Source: Nitrososphaerota archaeon
GTDB taxonomy: Archaea; Thermoproteota; Nitrososphaeria; Nitrososphaerales; Nitrosopumilaceae
Direction of reading: 5' to 3'
Length of the DNA stretch: 32,000 bases
Assembly (NCBI GenBank): GCA_022564515.1
Contig: JADFLH010000003.1
Span: 7,510 to 39,509 of the forward strand
The position numbers were made by a program, and so were the translations under genes. Shown piece after piece: positions 1 to 10,878 of the stretch (position 1 is the first letter of the stretch; every line of letters starts with the position of its first letter). Under the pieces are notes generated by a model. That model was not told the DNA's origin and did not search any database. It saw only the letters and a program-made list of their open reading frames with translations.

Positions 1-755
1 AATTCTGTATCAGAATCTAATAGCGGGTAAAACGTCCCAATAGCATTTGAACCGCCCCCAATACAAGCTATTACAGCATCAGGGACCTGTGTATGAAATT
101 CTTTGATTTGTTTTTTAATTTCATTACCAATCACGGATTGAAAATCTCTAACCATAACAGGATAGGGATGTGGTCCCACGGCGGAACCTAGCAGATAGTA
201 TGTGGTTTCAACATTTGTAATCCAATCTCGAATGGCTTCATTAATAGCGTCTTTTAGGGTTTGCGAACCAGATTTTACGGGATATATTTTTGAACCTAAA
301 AGGTTCATGCGAAACACGTTGAGTTTTTGTCGAATGGTGTCTTTGTAACCCATGTATACCTCAGACTTCATTCCAAGACATGAACACGCCATCGCGGTTG
401 CAACCCCATGTTGGCCTGCTCCAGTTTCAGCAATGATTCTTTTCTTTTTCATTTTTTTTGCAAGCAGAGCTTGGCCCAAAGTATTGTTGATTTTATGAGC
501 TCCACCATGAAGCAAATCTTCTCTCTTTAAGAGGATTTTTGCACCTCCTATCTTTTCTGTCAAGTTTTTTGCAAAATATAGTGGAGTTGGCCTTCCAGCA
601 TATGCTCTAAGGTAATGATCTAACTCTTTTTTGAAATCTTCATCATTTTTGAATTTTAGATAATTTTCCTCGAGCTCTTCAATTGCTGGTATTAATGTTT
701 CAGGAATGTATTTTCCACCAAAATCTCCAAATCTGCCATTTTTTGGTAACTTCAT
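1..755 (-). CDS. trpB: tryptophan synthase beta subunit, C-terminal end runs off the window edge
   Basis: Absent from the ORF track because it is open to the window edge. Hand translation from ATG 755..753 gives [21 protein letters not shown]...[19 protein letters not shown]...[22 protein letters not shown]. The PLP-lysine and GGGSN motifs are typical of TrpB. Its ATG overlaps the trpC TGA (ATGA). Confidence 0.93.
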
Positions 756-1525
756 ATCGCATTCACCAATTTTTTTACATTTTCTTCGATGTTTTCGGTT
801 TTCATTATACTGGTACCAACTAGGAAAACATCTGCCCCTGAATCTCTGAGGAATTTTATATCATTGGGTGATGCTATACCGCTTTCTGAAAGAATCAATC
901 TTGATTTTTTATATCCATTCAGCACTTTTTTAGTCGTGTTTAGATCAATTTCTAAAGTATCCAGGTCTCGATTGTTTATACCTATTAAATCAGCTTTTGT
1001 CCTGATGGATTTTTCAAATTCTTCTTTTGTATGTGCCTCTAAAATGATCCTGAGGTCCTTTTTCTGTCCGTAATCTATGAATTCATCAATTTCTTTGAGA
1101 TATCCTAAATCAAAAAGGGATTGGATTAATAGTATGTAATCTGCACCCATTTTTTGAGCTGCATCAATTTGACATTTGTCAATAATAATGTCTTTCATCA
1201 ACATTGGAACACTCATCACTTTTCGAATTGAAATAAAATATTCTGGCGAGCCATTAAACATATGTGGTTGTGTGAGGACTGAAAGAGCTTTTGCCCCTCC
1301 ACTTATCATAGACTTCGCAATGGTTATGGGATCCTTAATGGTACTAATTTCGCCCATTGATGGAGAAGAAAATTTAACTTCAGTAATTAGCGGTGCATGT
1401 TTGCTCTCCTTAATTTCTTTAATTAAATCAATTTTTGATTTTTCTAAATTTTCATTTATTTCATAAATGCCGTCATTTATTGCCCTTTGAGAATTTCCAA
1501 CTAATTTTTTCAAAAAATCTCTCAT
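752..1525 (-). CDS. trpC: indole-3-glycerol-phosphate synthase
   Basis: TIM-barrel IGPS-like sequence ([31 protein letters not shown]). I place the start at the internal ATG 1525..1523 (MRDFLKK...), which forms an ATGA overlap with the trpD stop, rather than at the ORF-track start 1564. Confidence 0.88.
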
Positions 1526-2568
1526 TGTTTGCAAACCTCTTCTAATTTTTGGACATCTCCGCAATCTTTGATAAATCTCTCAAACAAATCAAATGTTTGT
1601 CCACTTTTGATAGTGTTAAGTGCAATTTCTACTCCATCTGAAAAATTATCAACTTTGTTTGCCACAATCAAACCGGCTGCAGCATTTAATGCTGTAACCT
1701 CAATCTTTGAACGGTTAGCAGTGTTATTTAAAACTGAAACAAACGAAGAAATTGCCTCTTCTTTACTAGTAATTTTAATATCACTTAATTGGGATTTTTG
1801 TAATCCAAATTCTTGACCATCAATAGTTTGTGATTTGATCTTACCATCTTTCAAAATGCAAATATGATTTTTTGAGGAAGTAGAAAATTCATCCATCCCA
1901 TCTACCGATCTTACTGTGATAATGTTTTGTGATCCTTTTCTTTTCAGTAATAATGGCAATCTATCAAGGAATTCTTCAGAAAAAACTCCGATTAATTGGT
2001 TTTTTACATTTGCAGGATTGCTGAGAGGCCCAAGCAAATTAAATGCAGTTCTTCCACCCACAATTTTTCGTGCCTTTGCAACATTTTTCATGGCAGGATG
2101 AAATTTTTGGGCAAACATGAAACCAATTCTATGTTTTTCAATTATTGATGTAATTTTTTTAGGAGCTGACATTAGATCAAAACCAAAATGCTCAAAGATG
2201 TCAGCGCTGCCACAAACCCCTGAAACAGAACGATTTCCATGCTTTGCAACCACTCCACCAGCAGCCGCTATCACAAAAGAGGCGGCAGTTGAAATGTTAA
2301 AAGTCTCCATATCATCTCCACCAGTTCCACAAACATCAATAATAGTTCCATTAATTTGTGGAGAAATATGAAGTCCAAATTCCTGCATTTTATCTAACAT
2401 TCCTAACAACTCGTCATCCGTCTCGCTTTTTTTTGTAAGTTGTTTCAAAAATTTTGCTGCATTTTCATCACTTTCATTACCATTTAAAATGCTATCCATT
2501 GCTATGCAAACTTCTTCATATGTTAGGTCATTTCTTTGTTCTAGCTTTAATGTAAATTTTGTAATCAT
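1522..2568 (-). CDS. trpD: anthranilate phosphoribosyltransferase
   Basis: 348 aa with DVCGTGGD, KHGNRSVSG and SGSADIFE-type motifs characteristic of TrpD. Lies in the trp cluster. Confidence 0.92.
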   Translation of the reverse strand: MITKFTLKLEQRNDLTYEEVCIAMDSILNGNESDENAAKFLKQLTKKSETDDELLGMLDKMQEFGLHISPQINGTIIDVCGTGGDDMETFNISTAASFVIAAAGGVVAKHGNRSVSGVCGSADIFEHFGFDLMSAPKKITSIIEKHRIGFMFAQKFHPAMKNVAKARKIVGGRTAFNLLGPLSNPANVKNQLIGVFSEEFLDRLPLLLKRKGSQNIITVRSVDGMDEFSTSSKNHICILKDGKIKSQTIDGQEFGLQKSQLSDIKITSKEEAISSFVSVLNNTANRSKIEVTALNAAAGLIVANKVDNFSDGVEIALNTIKSGQTFDLFERFIKDCGDVQKLEEVCKQ

Positions 2569-3158
2569 TTTCTTTTCTTCACCATTTTTATAAAATTACT
2601 GAGAATTTTTTTTCCTTCTGAAGTCAATATTGATTCAGGATGAAATTGAACTCCTTCGATGAGATATTGTTTATGACTAACCCCCATTATCTCACCATCA
2701 TCTTCAGCAATAGCTGTAACTTCAAGGGAATCAGGAATTATTGTTTTGTCTCCAACTAATGAATGGTATCTTGTTGCACGAAATGGACTATTCACATTTT
2801 CAAATAAAGGAGTCCCTTCGTGTTTTACAGGACTTGTCTTTCCATGTCTGACGTTTCTTGCATTAACAACTTTCCCTCCAAATGCATGAATGATTCCCTG
2901 ATGACCTAAACAAACTCCAAGAATTGGTTTTTTTGGCCCTAATTCAGATATTACATCAACACAAATTCCAAAATATTTTTTATCATCTGGAGTTCCAGGT
3001 CCTGGAGAAATGACTATTGCATCATAATTATTTTTTTTAATTTGCTCAATAGTTATCTTGTCATTTCGAATCACATCTGATTTAACACCTAGCTCACCTA
3101 GAATTTGTGCTAGGTTGTAAACAAACGAATCATAATTATCAATAATTAAAAATTTCAT
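2565..3158 (-). CDS. trpG: anthranilate synthase component II (glutamine amidotransferase)
   Basis: 197 aa class-I GATase with LGVCLGHQ (catalytic Cys) and GVQFHPES (His/Glu). ATGA overlaps on both sides. Confidence 0.92.
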   Translation of the reverse strand: MKFLIIDNYDSFVYNLAQILGELGVKSDVIRNDKITIEQIKKNNYDAIVISPGPGTPDDKKYFGICVDVISELGPKKPILGVCLGHQGIIHAFGGKVVNARNVRHGKTSPVKHEGTPLFENVNSPFRATRYHSLVGDKTIIPDSLEVTAIAEDDGEIMGVSHKQYLIEGVQFHPESILTSEGKKILSNFIKMVKKRK

Positions 3159-4507
3159 TTTGATGCCTTCTTTAGAGCTGCTATCATTGCTTCTGCTTTG
3201 TGTTCAGTTTCTTTGAATTCATATTCAGGAACAGAATCTGATACAATTCCAGCACCAGATTGTACAAAACCATTTCCTCCCTTAAAAAATATGCTTCTGA
3301 TCGCGATGGCAAAATCACAGCAGCCATTAAAAGAGAAATAACCAACAGCACCTGCATATGGTCCCCGTGATTGTGGCTCTAATTCATCAATAATTTCCAT
3401 GGCCCTTATTTTAGGCGCTCCTGAAACTGTGCCTGCTGGAAAAACCGCTTTGAATGCATCAAACATATCATATTTGTCATCTAAATTGCCTACAACATGA
3501 GTTACCAAATGTTGTACATGACTGAATTGCTTTACTTCCATGAGTTCTTCAACATGTACGGAACCATATTTACAAACTCTTCCAATATCGTTTCTTCCTA
3601 AATCAACTAACATAGTATGTTCAGCAAGTTCTTTTTCATCATGAAGAAGTTCTTCTTTTAATCTTTCATTTTCTGCCTTGTCCTCTGTAATTTTTCTTGT
3701 TCCCGCAATTGGAAACGTTTCAACTAAATCATTTGTGACTCTAATTAACATTTCAGGACTCGCTCCAATAGTGATTTTATTTTCCATTTTTACATGATAC
3801 AAATACGGTGATGGATTTAGACTTCGTAAAATTTTATACACTTTAAGAAAATCTCCCTTTGCATTAAAGTTGAATCTTCTTGAAAGTACTGACTGGAACA
3901 TATCTCCATCATGAATGTATTTTTTAGCTCGGTTAACCATGTTTGAAAACTCTTCTTGATCTAGATTTGCAGAAATCTCTGACATTTCAAAATCAGCAAA
4001 TTTATCTTCTGAAATTTTTAATTCATTTGATCTATCTTTGTCATAATAGAAGTAAAGTAACTGTTTTTGTTTGTTGTCGTATAAAATACCATCTTTATAA
4101 ATTCCAAACTCCATTAATGGTTCAATTATGTTGTGAGAACTTGGAATTTCTTCCCACAATCTTATAGCATCATAATTAATGATGCCAACAGCTCCTCCTA
4201 AATAACGATAAGTTTGATCCGATGAAGTCTGCATAAAATCTTTTAAAGCAGACAAGGGTTCATTCGTCTTAATAATTTCAGTATTGTTATTTTTATGTTT
4301 TACAGCGATTTTGTCAGTGTACCCCTTTACAATAATTTCTGGGTCAAATCCCATAATTGAAGTCTCAGATAATCTTTCTGGGCCGGTGAGTGATTCAAAC
4401 AAAAATGAATGTGAATAATTTCGCGAAATTTTGTTATAAATTTGGAACTGGTTTTCAGATAAATCTAGGGGTATTATTGTAGGCGATATTTTTCCAAATA
4501 GGGTCAC
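3155..4507 (-). CDS. trpE: anthranilate synthase component I
   Basis: 450 aa chorismate-binding enzyme (LFESL, GASPE, FPAGTVSGAPKIRAMEII, RGPYAGAVGYF). The start is GTG at 4507..4505. Confidence 0.92.
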   Translation of the reverse strand: MTLFGKISPTIIPLDLSENQFQIYNKISRNYSHSFLFESLTGPERLSETSIMGFDPEIIVKGYTDKIAVKHKNNNTEIIKTNEPLSALKDFMQTSSDQTYRYLGGAVGIINYDAIRLWEEIPSSHNIIEPLMEFGIYKDGILYDNKQKQLLYFYYDKDRSNELKISEDKFADFEMSEISANLDQEEFSNMVNRAKKYIHDGDMFQSVLSRRFNFNAKGDFLKVYKILRSLNPSPYLYHVKMENKITIGASPEMLIRVTNDLVETFPIAGTRKITEDKAENERLKEELLHDEKELAEHTMLVDLGRNDIGRVCKYGSVHVEELMEVKQFSHVQHLVTHVVGNLDDKYDMFDAFKAVFPAGTVSGAPKIRAMEIIDELEPQSRGPYAGAVGYFSFNGCCDFAIAIRSIFFKGGNGFVQSGAGIVSDSVPEYEFKETEHKAEAMIAALKKASK

Positions 4508-4533
4508 CCATATTGGGCATGAAATGCATAGGG

Positions 4534-4541
4534 TATTTAAA
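4534..4541 (-). promoter_or_regulatory. candidate TATA box of the trp operon
   Basis: The minus strand reads TTTAAATA. Its 3' edge lies 26 nt upstream of the trpE GTG, which is the geometry of a (near) leaderless archaeal transcript. Confidence 0.45.
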
Positions 4542-4696
4542 ATTTTGATAAATTATGTTACCTGTTGTGACAGACTGATCTTTAAGTCCTCCACAGGTAT
4601 TACTATAAAGTAATAGAACCGGGGATGCCTTAAGCCCAATTGCCCCAATTTTTGGTACCTCGGTTTCTATTTTTTATTACGGTATAGTACGGTACC

Positions 4697-4703
4697 TTTA
4701 TAT
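4697..4703 (+). promoter_or_regulatory. candidate TATA box for the 4726 ORF
   Basis: TTTATAT ends 22 nt before ATG 4726. Confidence 0.4.
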
Positions 4704-4725
4704 CCGATCTTGTACTATTTTTATT

Positions 4726-4932
4726 ATGAGCCAAATTATTCTAGACGCCAAATTTACAAGACCCGCCTTGGTTCAAGACATCATATTTTCAAGAAAAAAA
4801 CTGGCTCTGATTTCGTCTGCAAACTTTGTTGAATGTGATATTTGTGGCAAAGGAATAGAGAATGGTTTTTCTATAACTGCTAAATCAATTTCAAACGAAA
4901 CTGTCTTTTTTTGTGATTTTCATTATAATTAG
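4726..4932 (+). CDS. small hypothetical protein with a CxxC...CxxH motif
   Basis: 68-aa ORF with an ATG start and a suitably placed TATA. Contains CDICGKG...FFCDFHYN, a possible zinc knuckle or ribbon. I recognise no family. Confidence 0.45.
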   Translation: MSQIILDAKFTRPALVQDIIFSRKKLALISSANFVECDICGKGIENGFSITAKSISNETVFFCDFHYN

Positions 4933-4959
4933 TAAGAAATCTTTAAAATTACTATGGCT

Positions 4960-6633
4960 TCAGATCGGTTTTGTAATAGCTCCTTGCGCCGCTGATCCTA
5001 CAAGTGATGCATATTTTGCTAATACTCCTGATGTGTAATTCGGTTTTGGCTGTTTCCACCTATCTCGCCTTTGTCTCATCTCATCTTCTGACACATTGAG
5101 ATTAATGGAATTCTCTCCAATGTTGATAGATATTTCGTCACCATCCTTTACAAGAGCTATGTTTCCTCCTACAAATGCTTCGGGAGCAACATGGCCAATC
5201 ATAAGACCTTTAGTTGCACCTGAAAATCTTCCATCAGTTACCAAAGATACTTTATTACCAAGTCCCTGTCCCACTAACGCAGCTGTGACAGCTAACATTT
5301 CTCGCATTCCAGGACCGCCTTTTGGGCCTTCATATCGTATAACAACTACATCACCATCTTTAATTTCCTCATTTGCGACAGAATCAAATGCATCTTCCTC
5401 TCTATCAAATACTTTAGCATGTCCAACGAATCTTGTTTTCTCACCTCCTGCAATCTTTACTACTGCTCCATCTGGCGCAAGAGACCCCTTCAAAATCATT
5501 GCAGTTCCGGTACTGTGAATAGGGGCATCAATTGGTGTCACAACATTTTGATTTTCTACTGTTTGAATTGAAATTGAATCAAGATTTTCTTTGAGTGTTT
5601 TTCCAGTAACTGTCAGAACATTATCATGGAGCAAGTTTTTTTCAGTCAATTTCTTTAAGATTAAAGGAATGCCGCCAATTTTATCTAAATCAAGCATTAC
5701 GTGCCTTCCTCCAGGTTTCATATCTGCCAGATGGGGTGTCTTCTTCCTAATTCGTTCAAAATCATTATAGGACAATTTTATGTCTACTTCATTTGAGATT
5801 GCAAGCAAGTGTAAAATCGCATTTGTGGAGCCTCCAATTGCATTAAGAATTGTTATTGCATTTTCAAACGCATCAAATGTTAGAATGTCCCTTGGTCTGA
5901 TGTTTTGTTCAACTAAATTTGTTACAGCCCTTCCTGTATCATAACACATCTTTTCTCTTCTATCGTCTTCAGCTGGTGGACTTGCGCTTCCTGGCAATGC
6001 TAGTCCTAATGCTTCACTGATTGAAGCCATAGTGTTTGCAGTAAACATTCCTCCACAAGAGCCAGCGTTTGGACATGCATAATTTTCAATATTCTTCAAA
6101 GTTTCAAGTGTTAGTTGCCCAGCTTCATATGCTCCAACTGCCTCATAAACATCTTGAACAGTAATTTGTTTTCCTTCGTAAATTCCTGGCATTATTGTTC
6201 CGCCATAAACAAAAACTGATGGAAGATTCAATCTTGCAATGGCCATCATTGTGCCCGGCAAACTTTTGTCACAACCAGCTATGCAAATTAAACCGTCATA
6301 TTGATGAGCACGCATCATTAGTTCAATGGAATCCGCAATCACTTCTCTACTAATTAGAGATGATTTCATTCCCTCATGACCCATTGCAATTCCATCACTA
6401 ACTGCAATGGTACTAAATACGCGAGGTGTTGCCCCTCCATCACCCGCTCCTTCTTTTGCCTTTTGTGCTAAACGCCCTAGGTGGATGTTACAAGGAGTTG
6501 CCTCATTTCCGGTATGGCATACTCCAATGAATGGTTTACTTAGATCAGCATCAGTTAACCCCATAGCTTTGTACATTGCTCTGTGGGGAGCTCTTGCTAT
6601 TCCTTCAACTACATTTCTACTAGAAATTTCCAT
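4960..6633 (-). CDS. ilvD: dihydroxy-acid dehydratase
   Basis: 557 aa IlvD/Edd family protein ([30 protein letters not shown]). Confidence 0.95.
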
Positions 6634-6677
6634 AGAGAAACAATAATCAATTATGTTTGCTGTAATTTAGACTTTTT

Positions 6678-7274
6678 TTACTTTAAAATTATCTGGCTGT
6701 CTAATTCTTCTAACTGCTCATCTAATTGTTCTAGTGTCTCGTCACCATAGGAAATCAATATTTTATCACCTTCATTTCCTACATAGTTAAGAATGCTTGG
6801 AACTGGCTCATGATTAATGTAGAACTTTAGTGAATAATCTTCGTTGTTACAGAATTCTCTGCCATCAGGAAAAATAAAACATTCAGATGTTAAATCAATT
6901 CCAAGAGTCTCGAAAAGATATCCTGATGTTACACCTGAAGAGTGACGATGAACCGTATCTCCATCTCGTCCTTCAAAATGAATCCATCTATTTTTTATTT
7001 GGAAAGCTGGACCAGAAAAGTCAAACTTGTCTCCAAATATTCGAACTAGAACTGAGACATGTTCATGTTCATCACCAAATACTCCAGCACCAGGGGGTGT
7101 GCCCGGGGTTGACACTGGTTGACTCATGAATGTATAAACAGAGTAACCTACTATAACCGCAATCAGCCCAAATACACCTGCTGCAACTAAGGCGTTTTTT
7201 CTCTTTTCTCTGGATCTCTTTACAGCAAAATCCTCTCGTTTTTCTACCCTTTCTTTTCTTGCTTTCTTTCCCAT
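6678..7274 (-). CDS. membrane-anchored hypothetical protein
   Basis: 198 aa with a Lys/Arg-rich N-terminus, one TM helix (ALVAAGVFGLIAVIVGYSVYTF), a His-rich ectodomain (DEHEHVSV, HFEGRDGDTVHRH) and an acidic C-terminus. No named family recognised. Confidence 0.7.
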   Translation of the reverse strand: MGKKARKERVEKREDFAVKRSREKRKNALVAAGVFGLIAVIVGYSVYTFMSQPVSTPGTPPGAGVFGDEHEHVSVLVRIFGDKFDFSGPAFQIKNRWIHFEGRDGDTVHRHSSGVTSGYLFETLGIDLTSECFIFPDGREFCNNEDYSLKFYINHEPVPSILNYVGNEGDKILISYGDETLEQLDEQLEELDSQIILK

Positions 7275-7397
7275 GTGATACTAAATCTCAAAAAAAAACC
7301 CTAATTAATTGTAAGGTACCTAAACAAGTCATACCTGCACCAGTTCCTGCACCTGAATGGTGGGACACCTCAGAAGAAGACGAAGGTGATTTTTGAG

Positions 7398-7568
7398 ATG
7401 ATTGATGATTACATAGATGATCCACATGATGCAGATGATGTTTGTATAATTTGTAACAAGCAGTTATCACTCCATGACGAAATTCAATCTCAACGATGTT
7501 ATGATAATTTAGTTAATTTAAGAATTGTAAAAAGGGGTTTAAGGAGGACTAGTAGTTTTGTTAGCTAG
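7398..7568 (+). CDS. small acidic CxxC ORF, doubtful
   Basis: MIDDYIDDPHDADDVCIICNKQL...; the ORF-track version starts at GTG 7386. Only the open frame and one CxxC support it. Confidence 0.2.
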   Translation: MIDDYIDDPHDADDVCIICNKQLSLHDEIQSQRCYDNLVNLRIVKRGLRRTSSFVS

Positions 7569-7794
7569 ACCCTACCATCGCTGATTTCGAGGAGGAATTT
7601 GAAGATTAAAGGGTAAACTTCAGGATCACCACTGCTTAGGAATGAGACCCTGAAGAACTCTGGGATGAGTTTGTATTGTATTTTCATTTTAAGGTAAAAA
7701 AACTTTGTAATAGGCACGTTTTTCGTGAAAAATGGGCTCAGGGGACTCTTAATCACTTCATAGTTTGCGCTAACTGTGATCATAGGGTTAGGAT

Positions 7795-8904
7795 TTGGTT
7801 TTGAGTCAATTAGTTCAATATACCTTAGAGGGCAAACCGTTTGAACCCTTAGAAATCAAACCGTATAGATGGATAACAATTCAAGAACAAAATGACTTTG
7901 TTAATTTCATTGATTCTTTAGGAGGTTTAGCAAAACAGATCACAACTGAAGAAAAATTATCCTGGTGTGCTAGCGAATTTGAGAAGTATCGCTGTAAGAA
8001 CGATCCTAATCATGCAAGAAGAATAAAGTATTTAGCTTGTGGTAGGCGTGGAAAGTGTCCTAGATGTTCTATGAGTTATGCTAGTAAAAGAGCTGAAATA
8101 ATGTATCAATGGTTAAGAAAGAATATAGCTAAACATCTTCCTTTTGATTTGAAATTAAACCAGATTGTTTTGACCTTGCCAGAACCGCTTCATGATATGG
8201 ATGTGAAATTATTTTCAAAAATGGTTAGGAAGTTTATGACTGAATTTGGCATAGAGGCTTATGGTTATTGTAATCAAACAAGACATTCAAAAAATCCGTT
8301 GGATGGGAAGTATTTGCACACTCACATTTTATCATTGAATATAAAAAAAGAATCTAATGGAATAGTTCAGAATGCTTACTATTTTGATGTTGAAAGGATG
8401 AGAAAGGTTTGGAAGAATATTATAATAAAAAATACAGGATTTGAGGTTGAAGGTGAAGTTGATTTACATACTGAATATGTCAGTGTGATTCATGACCCAC
8501 GAAGAGTAAAACATCTTTTATCATATCTTTACAGATATCCAATAGAAGATTTATTCAAAGTCCAAATTCGTAACAAGTCTATTAATTATGTTCAATTTTC
8601 GCAAATCGAAAATTTTGATGGGGCTAATAATACACTGCAACTCGACCTATCAAAAAAAGTGTATGAGTTAACACAAGAAAAAAAATCAAGAATAGTTTGG
8701 TGTGGTTTGCTTACTTCAGCTAGGCGTAAGGAGTTAGTGAGGTTACTAAAAATAGATGAAAGTGAGTGGACTAGTCTCGCTGACGTGGAAAAAGACCTAG
8801 ACCTGAGGGCAAAGTGTTGCCTTGATTGTGGCTGTCCGCTTGAAGATCAGCCATATGATAGAGGAAGTTATCAAGCTGATAATGAGCCAGAATTATTTCA
8901 ATAA
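7795..8904 (+). CDS. Y2 HUH-superfamily rolling-circle transposase/replication initiator, IS91-family-like
   Basis: Ordered motifs: Cys cluster YLACGRRGKCPRCS; motif I QIVLTLPEP; HUH GKYLHTHILSL; Y-x3-Y in LLSYLYRYPIED; SRIVWCGLLTSARRKE; C-terminal CCLDCGCP. This pattern matches my memory of IS91 TnpA (zinc-binding N-domain plus Y2 transposase domain). The start is TTG with a TAG one codon upstream (7789..7791), so the N-terminus may be truncated. Confidence 0.75.
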   Translation: MVLSQLVQYTLEGKPFEPLEIKPYRWITIQEQNDFVNFIDSLGGLAKQITTEEKLSWCASEFEKYRCKNDPNHARRIKYLACGRRGKCPRCSMSYASKRAEIMYQWLRKNIAKHLPFDLKLNQIVLTLPEPLHDMDVKLFSKMVRKFMTEFGIEAYGYCNQTRHSKNPLDGKYLHTHILSLNIKKESNGIVQNAYYFDVERMRKVWKNIIIKNTGFEVEGEVDLHTEYVSVIHDPRRVKHLLSYLYRYPIEDLFKVQIRNKSINYVQFSQIENFDGANNTLQLDLSKKVYELTQEKKSRIVWCGLLTSARRKELVRLLKIDESEWTSLADVEKDLDLRAKCCLDCGCPLEDQPYDRGSYQADNEPELFQ

Positions 8905-8926
8905 ACAAAATCCTTAATTTTCTGTT

Positions 8927-9235
8927 ATGTTGATCGTTTACATGGTTTTACCTGAAGATTTTAGAAAGAAGTTTAGACATTTTATTGAAGATGAAATTGC
9001 TAGTATAGAACGACATGATTTTGAGGTTGAACGGCATAAGTCTATGTGGAAATATCAAAATGCTTGGGATTTTATGTATGGTCAAGAAGTTGGTTTTTTG
9101 TATGGTTCACTTATGGGTTATTGGGAAGGAAAGAAAGGAAGGAGCCCGACAGATGAAGAAATTGTTGAGATGAATGAACTTGTGGAAGAACACGCTTCAC
9201 AGTTAAGGGAAACACTTGAAAAGTATTGGGATTAG
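8927..9235 (+). CDS. hypothetical protein co-oriented with the Rep gene
   Basis: 102-aa ORF 22 nt downstream of the Rep stop, rich in Trp/Tyr/Glu. No family recognised. Confidence 0.5.
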   Translation: MLIVYMVLPEDFRKKFRHFIEDEIASIERHDFEVERHKSMWKYQNAWDFMYGQEVGFLYGSLMGYWEGKKGRSPTDEEIVEMNELVEEHASQLRETLEKYWD

Positions 9236-9248
9236 CCAAGTCTCAAAA

Positions 9249-9344
9249 ATGCTTCCGAAGTGAGCGAGCCTCCTCAATTAGAAGGAGGCAAGTGAACGAG
9301 GAAGCATGAATGATGCTTCCGAAAGAGCAGACCTCCTGATTTGA
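9249..9344 (+). repeat. two ~32-nt direct repeats; the first lies in a nested cruciform-capable inverted repeat
   Basis: DR1 9249..9280 is ATGCTTCCGAAGTGAGCGAGCCTCCTCAATTA; DR2 9313..9344 is ATGCTTCCGAAAGAGCAGACCTCCTGATTTGA. ATGCTTCC (9249-56) pairs with GGAAGCAT (9300-07). An inner stem pairs GCCTCCT (9268-74) with AGGAGGC (9283-89). Confidence 0.85.
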
Positions 9345-9365
9345 ATTATTTAATAGAAAAATTAA

Positions 9366-9400
9366 CATTTGTTACGAACTGTTAATTGACAGTTCGGTAA
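9366..9400 (+). repeat. hairpin whose 5' arm is a reverse copy of dispersed motif M1
   Basis: CATTTGTTACGAACTG (9366-81) is the reverse complement of CAGTTCGTAACAAATG. CGAACTGT (9375-82) pairs with ACAGTTCG (9389-96) across a 6-nt loop. Confidence 0.85.
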
Positions 9401-9468
9401 TTCTGTTGTTCAATCGACATTTTCGTTAGATTCTAAACTAAGAAATTCTCAGGATTAGGAGCAAATAT

Positions 9469-9579
9469 CTAGTATTTTGAGTATCCTCTAAGATAATATT
9501 CATTGAGACATTCTATGCAACAAAATTCACTATCAAATAATTCAAATTCCTTCTTACAGTTCTTACATTTAAAGTTCAT
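9469..9579 (-). CDS. 36-aa zinc-ribbon micro-protein (not in ORF track)
   Basis: Hand translation gives MNFKCKNCKKEFELFDSEFCCIECLNEYYLRGYSKY, with CxxC...CxxC spacing, an ATG start and a TAG stop. Confidence 0.4.
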   Translation of the reverse strand: MNFKCKNCKKEFELFDSEFCCIECLNEYYLRGYSKY

Positions 9580-9614
9580 AATTACTCAATTTTTAAAAAA
9601 AGGGAAAATTGATT

Positions 9615-9719
9615 CTAACGCCTCTTTTTTTTAGAACCTTTTTTTGCGGCTGCATTTCTTTTTCTAGTGAGAGCAGCTTTTTTTGCTGAAGCACTACGTT
9701 GAGCTTTTGTACGTGCCAT
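9615..9719 (-). CDS. 34-aa highly basic micro-protein (not in ORF track)
   Basis: Hand translation gives MARTKAQRSASAKKAALTRKRNAAAKKGSKKKRR. It has an ATG start, and a TATAAG-like element lies about 25-30 nt upstream on the minus strand. Confidence 0.45.
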   Translation of the reverse strand: MARTKAQRSASAKKAALTRKRNAAAKKGSKKKRR

Positions 9720-9870
9720 TCTACAAAGTAGAGTGTGTGCTTGGTCTTATAGACTAGCATGTACTTTTTTTACGCCAAAATTTCATTTGTAGAATGGTAT
9801 TTTTACGGGATACGAGCTTTTGATAAACAGATGAATCTTATTCTCACCAACTCTAAAGACATTACTGAAG

Positions 9871-10401
9871 ATGATGCCTCAATCTAAACCATTAATCAGC
9901 ATAGAAAATGTTGTTGTAACAGCAACAATTGATCAACGACTAGACCTAAAAGATATAACAAAAAAATTTCCCGAGGTAGAATGGCGTCCAGAACTGTTTC
10001 CAGGAGATGAGAATTTAAAAAGAAGAATTGGTTTTAAAATATTGAAAGAATTGATAAAACCACTCTAATACTATACTAAAATAATCAATACGTGAAGTGC
10101 AAATCTGGATATGTACACTATTTTACTTGGTTTTCTCTACAAGAAAAACGACTTTGTATTAACTGCCACATAGAATCTAATTCTGAAGAATCTTAACATC
10201 TGTTCATTGTCAATGATGAATAATTTGTTCACAACAGTTATACTAAGCGATCAAGGACAATTAGTAGAGATAACAGGAAAACAATTACGATTAAAAAATT
10301 TTGATTATGAATACTGTTGTCTACTAAAGATTATTATGGTTCTGACTCATCAAAATCACACAAATCTTTTAGAAATTACTATTTTTGTCAAATTATGGTA
10401 G
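9871..10401 (+). pseudogene. TATA-binding-protein-like gene disrupted by three in-frame stops
   Basis: The first 45 codons (LISIENVVVTATIDQRLDLKDITKKFPEVEWRPELFPG) match the TBP repeat-1 pattern IENIVAS..L...LDL......EY.PE.FPG. The same frame continues for 177 codons, about TBP length, with stops at 10066 (TAA), 10093 (TGA) and 10171 (TAG). Weak TBP-like pieces follow (ILLGFLYKKNDFVLTAT; VILSDQGQ...LKNFDYEY). Confidence 0.55.
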
Positions 10402-10467
10402 CTGATTTGGCAACGTTACTTAATTGAATCGCTGAAACAATAAATTAAACGAAATTCGAATTTTAAT

Positions 10468-10878
10468 ATGAAGTGCCTATTCTGTGATATAATTAATAGG
10501 AAAAAAACAGGTCATTTTATTTTTGAAGATGAAATTCATGTAGCATTTTTGGATAGATATCCAATCGATATTGGTCATAGTCTTGTATTGCCACGAAAAC
10601 ATTATGAAAAAATTACAGATATGCCTGAAAAACAAGTTGGTGAACTTTTTTCCAAAGTGCAAAAAATTGTAAAGGCGATTTTACAAGCAACAAATGCTGA
10701 CGCCTTTAGTATAGGACAAAATAACGGTAGAGCTGCAAAACAAATCGTTCCACATGTACATGTTCATCTTATACCTAGGTATGACCATAAAGGTACAGTT
10801 TGGACTAAAAGAGGAATTTCAAATGATGAGGAAATGAAATGTCTGTCTGAAAAAATCAGAAAATTTATTCAATCATGA
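10468..10878 (+). CDS. HIT-family nucleotide hydrolase/transferase
   Basis: 136 aa with the histidine triad HVHVHLIP and an N-terminal CLFC. Confidence 0.88.
   Translation: MKCLFCDIINRKKTGHFIFEDEIHVAFLDRYPIDIGHSLVLPRKHYEKITDMPEKQVGELFSKVQKIVKAILQATNADAFSIGQNNGRAAKQIVPHVHVHLIPRYDHKGTVWTKRGISNDEEMKCLSEKIRKFIQS

Follow-up and report, generated by a model that had tools for sequence, protein, structure and literature searches.

A rolling-circle Rep gene of probable integrative-plasmid descent in a polymorphic insertion of a Nitrosopumilaceae archaeon

The locus

The stretch of DNA analysed here, called the window throughout, comprises 32,000 nucleotides (nt) of a Nitrososphaerota archaeon of the Nitrosopumilaceae (GenBank assembly GCA_022564515.1, contig JADFLH010000003.1, positions 7,510 to 39,509). 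Between a host gene of 198 amino acids (aa) and a host gene of the HIT family, the window carries a block of inserted DNA, and within this block lies one copy of a gene for a putative rolling-circle replication initiator, Rep (Table 1). An initial annotation had noticed the Rep open reading frame (ORF) for its Cys cluster, HUH motif and paired tyrosines and had read it as the transposase of an IS91/ISCR-like element. The present analysis concerns the family to which Rep belongs, the elements in which its relatives are found and the state of the window copy.

The insertion and its two alleles

In a more distant relative (L100), the HIT gene and the 198-aa gene are divergent neighbours with conserved synteny on both sides, and the spacer between them measures 77 bp, compared with 3.19 kb in the window. 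The DNA of approximately 3.1 kb that extends from ~7313-7331 to 10394-10441 is therefore inserted, as the initial annotation had supposed for the interval of 7.3-10.4 kb. The L100 spacer aligns with the window up to about the left boundary zone and resumes at ~10416. On the left, every relative examined has the 198-aa gene in synteny with ilvD and the trp operon.

The content of this slot varies between strains. Six contigs from other samples match window positions 1-7331 at 99.9% and then continue into a gene for a 384-aa tyrosine integrase, the ATG of which lies 32 nt further on. On the right side, all ten contigs with an identical HIT gene share the right arm of the window. One contig (L112) diverges left of position 9417 and enters a TFB-like gene at its zinc ribbon; two others (L010 and L013) end at 9394, with L013 providing independent confirmation of the left junction of the window. 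Two alleles thus occupy the slot: the stretch from 7332 to ~9416, with p60, p42, Rep, p102 and the hairpins, and an alternative that reads integrase ... TFB-like.

The right arm, which is common to both alleles, is missing from the empty site of L100 and deleted in a closer relative, L096 (93-97% DNA identity). L096 rejoins the window at 7312 on the left and at 10401 on the right and retains only the final 78 bp of Rep together with the 102-aa ORF. The short repeats TTRATTGT, ATGCTTCCGAA and CTGATTTG mark its three deletion junctions; L096 was thus rejected as an empty site and is a deletion remnant.

At least six metagenome assemblies from different samples (L092-L094, L097-L099) break 2-390 bp from the start of the 198-aa gene (window 7275-7331). 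Strain heterogeneity at the slot is therefore widespread in nature.

The Rep protein

The motifs named in the initial annotation are all present in the Rep translation, at residues 82-92 (CGRRGKCPRCS), 124-131 (IVLTLPEP), 174-181 (LHTHILSL), 244-249 (YLYRYP), 299-306 (RIVWCGLL) and 341-348 (CCLDCGCP), and they fall on invariant columns of an alignment with 36 homologues (48-64% identity). The residues without variation in this set are C82, C88, L126, T127, P129, H175, H177 and Y244, followed by Y246, R247, Y248, W302, C303, G304, C342 and C345. In a wider set of 28 relatives (19-56% identity), C82, Y244 and G304 remain invariant, and C88, T127, P129, H175, H177, R247 and C342 are conserved in at least 90%. 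The succession of motif I (LTLP, 126-129), HUH (H175-x-H177) and tyrosine (Y244) is kept across both the close and the distant relatives. The double tyrosine of the initial annotation stands in part: no member of the thaumarchaeal subfamily deviates at Y244 or Y248, but conservation of Y248 does not extend to the wider family, and the label "two-tyrosine" is for this reason valid only locally, within the subfamily. Translation of Rep likely begins at a TTG (7801) whose overlap with the TGA stop of the preceding 42-aa ORF gives the sequence TTGA.

Rep has at least 195 homologues, most of them full-length and 47-65% identical to it, in addition to one cluster at 98%; an exhaustive search of the family gave 87 cluster representatives. 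Wherever a source name or genomic context is available, the homologues come from thaumarchaeal genomes or metagenomes, and their annotation never goes beyond "hypothetical protein".

Two profiles were built for remote comparison, a narrower family profile (A1) and a broad one (A2). In alignment A1, the C-terminal tail G-x-Y-x-G-D-N-E-P (8869-8901, residues 359-369) is strongly conserved, with Y359 and E364 invariant and G357, G361 and P365 at 90% or more. The tail matches no recognised motif and may be a candidate docking motif for a host factor. Some members of the same alignment carry Cys modules on top of the two zinc-binding clusters common to the whole family: P0040, P0043 and P0060 have an additional Cys-rich domain of ~70 aa at the N-terminus, and P0041 and P0077 have a C-x2-C...H-C module inserted after residue ~270.

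Homology and predicted fold

Searched against Pfam, PHROGs and NCBIfam, the window Rep gave no Y2_Tnp, Zn_Tnp_IS91 or Rep match even at E <= 10, so that the profile check proposed with the initial annotation came out negative for the two IS91 models. Against PDB sequences, phmmer and profile searches returned nothing relevant. The weak matches of individual family members are nevertheless all to HUH families, namely Relaxase (5.6e-6), Rep_1, Phage_GPA and Zn_Tnp_IS91. Distant relatives match Pfam Rep_1 at 4.9e-6; one of them, P0160, reaches 21.5 bits for Y2_Tnp (cut-off 20.9), and another, P0163, reaches 26.3 bits for Zn_Tnp_IS91, which equals the cut-off of 26.3.

A tblastn search of phage and plasmid collections gave matches only at E 2-4. 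Two of these marginal matches are bacterial "transposase" genes, which were used as targets for profile-profile comparison, and both are genuine IS91-type transposases by Pfam (Y2_Tnp 4.5e-23 and 6.1e-39; Zn_Tnp_IS91 8e-19 and 2.2e-21). With hhalign, the A2 profile aligns to the first of them at 98.4% (E 4.5e-15, 265 columns) and to the second at 97.7% (E 1.4e-12, 174 columns). The 265-column alignment spans the zinc ribbon, motif I, HUH, the Tyr-x-x-Arg helix and the C-terminal CxxC. Judged by these profile alignments, the Rep family is a true but distant homologue of the IS91 transposases. The A2 profile also aligns to RepA of the haloarchaeal virus SNJ1 (90%, E 1.7e-6), over only 100 N-terminal columns that hold the zinc ribbon, motif I and the WHS motif; the narrower A1 profile gives only P = 0.017 against the same protein.

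An AlphaFold (AF2) model computed from the family alignment has a pLDDT of 85.5 and a pTM of 0.83. Compared by Foldseek with predicted viral structures, the model gives 51 matches at E <= 1e-3, the best at 1.2e-7, and all of the named ones are replication initiators of the Microviridae. As modelled, the Rep family has the HUH nuclease fold. Rep is thus an HUH rolling-circle enzyme of the lineage of IS91 TnpA and probably of SNJ1 RepA, in a separate family that current Pfam models miss.

The likeness to IS91 transposases extends over the domain order, and the profile-profile homology is significant all the way from zinc ribbon to C-terminal CxxC. The two differ in that the window Rep escapes the Y2_Tnp and Zn_Tnp_IS91 models and that its family belongs to integrase-bearing plasmids. 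SNJ1 RepA is likewise archaeal and related to IS91 TnpA, and the N-terminal CxxC zinc ribbon, motif I and the subsequent WHS-type motif align. However, the HUH and tyrosine regions lie outside the 100 aligned columns, and SNJ1 RepA is a protein of 481 aa encoded on a 16.5-kb virus genome that lacks the integrase module of the present family. The initiators of the Microviridae (phiX174 gpA type) and of the Rep_1 group (pUB110/pC194 type) resemble Rep in predicted fold and in weak Rep_1 and Phage_GPA profile matches, and by analogy the same chemistry would be expected of them all. Unlike Rep, these initiators have neither the zinc ribbon nor the C-terminal CxxC, and the window Rep has no sequence-level match to them.

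A further archaeal comparison was provided by the Rep-Arvir / RepSNJ2 system of the pleolipovirus SNJ2, with a Rep of the DUF7845 family related to Rep_trans (PMC13107129, 2026). It is a functional analogue, in which an integrated archaeal element has, besides a tyrosine integrase and a Rep, an origin with a hairpin on the downstream side of rep (PMC13107129). Identity with Rep-Arvir was rejected, as this family is DUF7845 and Rep_trans-related rather than HUH/IS91 and the window Rep has no such Pfam match.

Integrase linkage and a circular relative

A metagenome scan added 80 loci, and 61 dereplicated loci were analysed for their gene context. A scan of genome contigs with a single protein found one locus only, which was already known, and an exact-sequence look-up of the window Rep and of P0224 returned no contig. 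Of the dereplicated loci, 17 extend at least 2 kb upstream, and 14 of these have a tyrosine integrase on the same strand 0.5-2.1 kb upstream of Rep. A small ORF ends at the Rep start at 29 of 46 loci; it usually contains C-x2-C and typically overlaps Rep by 4 nt. A tyrosine integrase likewise precedes the Rep homologue in a metagenome-assembled genome of a soil thaumarchaeon.

The cassette of L007 is inserted between ribosomal-protein and proteasome genes. It measures 5.2 kb and reads integrase, RHH, 220-aa ORF, small ORFs, Rep, 104-aa ORF and methyltransferase. A 5,254-bp contig from another sample corresponds exactly to this cassette. At L007, a search for att-type repeats of 14 nt or more found none, and no tRNA gene that might serve as an integration target was found in the window, L001, L004 or L007.

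A circular form was seen for one relative, the Rep of which is ~50% identical to that of the window. Its contig (L053; 4,120 bp) has a terminal repeat of 127 bp, which implies a circle of 3,993 bp with integrase and Rep, and the 370-aa integrase is complete only across the contig junction. A contig from a different sample (L052) is a 100% identical circular permutation of L053. The circle was seen for this relative, not for the window copy. By the integrase linkage and by a circle that carries both integrase and Rep, these elements are small integrative rolling-circle plasmids and not insertion sequences. The initial annotation was correct in placing the enzyme near IS91 TnpA, but its reading of the element as an IS91/ISCR transposon is not supported.

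The initial annotation knew of no element of this type characterised in ammonia-oxidising archaea. One such element had, however, been reported in 2019, and judged by gene order the kind of element appears to be already known in these organisms. The thaumarchaeal cryptic integrated element NitAQ6f-E2 (Krupovic et al. 2019, PMC6563490), 19.3 kb in size and located at tRNA-Phe, was described as having an "SNJ1-like RC-Rep", and the same paper cites Wang et al. 2018 (J Gen Virol 99:416) for the homology of SNJ1 RepA and IS91. Its gene table lists an integrase (+), a hypothetical gene (-), a 66-aa ORF (+) and a 331-aa Rep (+). The host phylum and the order of the module, including the small ORF that abuts Rep, are the same as in the present family, and both Reps are described as related to SNJ1 RepA. 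Compared by gene order alone, the window Rep would belong to the family of the NitAQ6f-E2 Rep (WP_100182093.1). The two cases differ in size and in target: the present elements measure only 4-5 kb, and in the window the insertion lies between genes. New here are the breadth of the family, the circular member of 4 kb and a polymorphic window copy that lacks an integrase yet is under selection.

Selection on the window copy

Compared with copies that are 98-99% identical, Rep shows synonymous to non-synonymous changes of 9/3, 13/7 and 14/6, with a neutral expectation of ~1:3 (binomial p 3e-5 to 4e-4). Because this synonymous excess is far from the neutral ratio, the window Rep is not a decaying pseudogene; it is intact and under purifying selection.

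Selection of this kind might be expected of a domesticated gene, in which case the element would be dead and the host would retain the nuclease for its own purposes, for example to repair DNA or to defend the cell against related plasmids. The intact ORF and its low ratio of non-synonymous to synonymous changes would fit such a role, as would the decay of its neighbours, visible in the TBP fragment and in the deletions of L096. However, the cassette is missing from many co-occurring strains that have 99.9% identical flanks and carry the integrase allele instead, and Rep is dispensable, since it is mostly deleted in L096 and absent from L100. Moreover, the selection could reflect recent activity in the element lineage, with the Rep of L011 differing by just 1.1%. 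Domestication is thus quite improbable.

Since the Rep allele contains no integrase, the window copy probably cannot excise by itself. Integrases are damaged in other members as well: that of L095 (2-762, -), one of the six contigs with the integrase allele, is split into two frames by a frameshift, and that of L001 (5790-6536) retains only the N-terminal 248 aa. On account of these two cases, loss of the integrase, as in the window, may be a common fate of such elements. The window locus is an ordinary, partly decayed insertion.

A candidate origin

Downstream of Rep, where the initial annotation had pointed to a cluster of hairpins, three stem-loops are indeed present (Table 1). Their DNA fold has a z of -3.4, and none of 200 shuffles folds as well. 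The hairpin region shows zero substitutions over 233 nt compared with L011 and L012, and the cluster lies inside the Rep-specific allele, the right end of which is at ~9417. Given the strong fold, the lack of substitutions and the location in the Rep allele, the cluster is a reasonable candidate for the replication origin. The initial annotation had likened its position to that of an ISCR-type oriIS; no terminal structure or word resembling the conserved ends oriIS and terIS was found across the family. Additionally, the target sequences GTTC and CTTG are present neither at the ends of the block shared with L011 (~7589, 10393) nor at the ends of the allele (7331, 9417).

Proposed origin of the cassette

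The window gene is probably the rolling-circle Rep of an integrative plasmid lineage, preserved as an integrase-less cassette in a polymorphic insertion. In the complete element, an integrative plasmid or cryptic integrated element of Thaumarchaeota of ~4-5 kb, the tyrosine integrase would insert and excise the circle. By analogy with the chemistry of HUH enzymes, Rep would nick one strand at the origin and hold the 5' end through Y244, and the free 3'-OH would then be extended by the host replisome so that the circle is copied. The small Cys ORF overlapping the Rep start would be co-translated with Rep. The window allele would represent the Rep cassette of such an element, from 7332 to ~9416 between the 198-aa gene and HIT, with the integrase gone and Rep intact.

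Several observations weigh against this reading. No integrase was found anywhere in the 32-kb window, where a hidden Markov model built from the family's own integrases gave a best E of 0.26 (positive control 1e-69); the remark in the initial annotation that no integrase lies nearby therefore holds for the entire window. Two copies of an imperfect repeat of ~30 nt are present at the edges (7297-7327 and 10411-10441), and the single L100 spacer aligns with each of them. As an att site, this repeat is not above chance, with 30% of shuffles and 17% of real windows scoring equally. Foldseek of the model against the PDB found no match at E <= 1e-3; its weak tail comprises TrwC, TraI, RAYT and a CRESS Rep. 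As for the hairpin cluster, it is confined to the clade of the window. No hairpin is conserved family-wide, those located 3' of Rep in other members differing in sequence and position, and no DNA word common to the family was found that could be a candidate nick site.

Also unfavourable to a plasmid origin is the recurrence of window positions 7591-10394, a block of 2.8 kb, in L011 at 98.7% identity with other flanks on both sides (breakpoints at ~7589 on the left and 10393/10394 on the right). This arrangement could also be read as movement driven by Rep, and it is one of the reasons to consider an IS91/ISCR-like transposon, in which Rep would act as transposase and the element would move without an integrase, its one-ended rolling-circle transposition starting at a hairpin end that resembles an origin. 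Such a transposon would also agree with the full-length homology to genuine IS91 TnpA, with the hairpins downstream of Rep, with the absence of an integrase from the window and with the small upstream ORF that overlaps the Rep start, which has a counterpart in orf121 of IS91 according to a passage of PMC13181058. However, the left flank of the L011 block contains more cassette genes (an RHH gene and a small ORF resembling RHH), which argues for a fuller element rather than a new insertion. The family is linked to a tyrosine integrase that the 4-kb circle includes, and the integrase-bearing allele uses the same slot. Moreover, the window holds one copy, Rep matches neither Y2_Tnp nor Zn_Tnp_IS91 in Pfam, the block ends lack the GTTC/CTTG target and the family has no common terminal structure. 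A transposon is thus unlikely.

The last group of contrary observations comes from four loci (L083-L085 and L088) in which Rep homologues of 46-47% identity have no integrase and stand beside a block of co-directional unknown ORFs (Table 1). This block encodes a 93-aa zinc protein and ORFs of 142, 178, 198 ("MARKRRRR"), 271 and 240 aa. It also encodes two membrane proteins, a basic protein of 143 aa and a protein rich in Pro, Thr and Glu that ends in a C-terminal anchor. Searches of the L084 block against Pfam and PHROGs gave nothing informative, with no recognisable capsid or packaging gene. The L084-type block may represent a virus-like element with a Rep of the same family.

From these loci it could be argued that the Rep family also serves undescribed thaumarchaeal viruses and that the window preserves a replication module left by a degraded provirus. 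The four loci adjoin at least 7 kb of such ORFs, with basic and membrane-anchored proteins and no integrase; additionally, SNJ1 RepA, the closest relative studied by experiment, comes from a virus, and the closest folds are Reps of the Microviridae. However, the window contains no structural-type genes, the L084 block is without a recognisable capsid or packaging gene, a scan of IMG/VR found no member of the family, and the closest relatives with context (L007, L011 and L053) are plasmid-like elements of 4-5 kb. A provirus remnant is the least probable of the explanations considered and would be surprising, and the integrative plasmid lineage remains the preferred origin of the window cassette.

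Other components of the insertion

The initial annotation had described the surroundings of Rep as fragments, micro-ORFs and a pseudogene. The fragment of TBP agrees with this description (Pfam 1.3e-6), but the 60-aa and 42-aa ORFs upstream of Rep have homologues at the same position in relatives. The 60-aa ORF is identical in L013. The 42-aa ORF is probably translationally coupled to Rep. In comparison with its counterpart in L011 (1514-1642), it shows 12.4% divergence, with 13 of 16 changes non-synonymous, next to a Rep that differs by only 1.1%; this divergence marks a seam of recombination or else a small protein that evolves fast. The 102-aa ORF adjoins Rep in L010-L013 and survives in the L096 remnant.

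In the right arm, the 36-aa and 34-aa micro-ORFs are almost identical in L011 and L012, and the TBP fragment is shortened to 48 aa in L011 (110-184). The alternative allele carries the zinc-ribbon gene of TFB type (L112:2-130, -). With a TBP fragment in the insertion and a TFB-like gene in the other allele, fragments of basal transcription factors therefore travel with the elements. No Rfam family was found within 7000-10700, and scans for bacterial-type promoters and terminators were uninformative.

Table 1. Features of the window locus and of related loci (positions are those of the window unless a locus is named)
Feature	Position	Strand	Remarks
198-aa host flank gene	6678..7274	-	annotated by sources as protein-disulfide isomerase; 2,347 homologues
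Left boundary zone, candidate attL	7297..7331	.	L096, six integrase-allele contigs, L100 spacer
60-aa small ORF, motif CIICNK...C, conserved cassette gene	7386..7568	+	tblastn to L007 p59: 46% identity, E 1.4e-11
42-aa small Cys ORF, stop overlapping Rep start (TTGA)	7676..7804	+	homologous to L007 p63, E 1.3e-6
Rep gene	7795..8904	+	369 aa; zinc ribbon, HUH nuclease (motif I LTLP, H175-x-H177, Y244), C-terminal CxxC
102-aa ORFan, cargo	8927..9235	+	only two clusters in 5.8 billion proteins
Three-hairpin cluster, unproven candidate replication origin	9268..9397	.	stem-loops 9268-9289, 9300-9320, 9376-9397
Right arm, common to both alleles	9417..10394	.	in all 10 contigs with identical HIT gene
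36-aa zinc-ribbon ORF (double C-x2-C)	9469-9579	-	right arm
34-aa very basic ORF (MARTKAQRSASAKKAALTRKRNAAAKKGSKKKRR)	9615-9719	-	right arm
TBP N-terminal fragment	9871-10068	+	Pfam TBP 1.3e-6, profile positions 2-40 of 85
64-aa ORF	10207-10401	+	right arm
Right boundary zone, candidate attR	10394..10441	.	L011, L096, L100 breakpoints
HIT-family host flank gene	10468..10878	+	Pfam HIT recorded for identical copies
Rep homologue with co-directional unknown-ORF block	L084:1516-8556; L088:3631-7987; L083:3-2758; L085:2-1720		

Significance

There is no genetic system for ammonia-oxidising archaea, and small circular elements of 3-12 kb have been suggested as starting points for shuttle vectors (PMC6563490). 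The circle of 3,993 bp, which contains an integrase, Rep and a few small genes and is identical in two samples, is a concrete vector candidate of this kind. The Rep family, with its 195 or more members, its invariant predicted catalytic residues and a confident structural model, additionally offers a marker for finding further elements.

A broader proposal, which is tentative and on balance doubtful, is that the family marks widespread, undescribed integrative rolling-circle plasmids of ~4 kb in marine and soil Thaumarchaeota, that it may also replicate the virus-like element of the L084 type, and that the window cassette may still replicate or move by Rep alone. If this were true, an active cassette with Rep as its sole enzyme would stand, as an archaeal intermediate, between the Rep of a plasmid and a transposase of the IS91 type. 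The family itself adds an archaeal branch between the IS91 transposases and the initiators of plasmids and viruses, and it bears on the exchange of enzymes between rolling-circle transposons and replicons.

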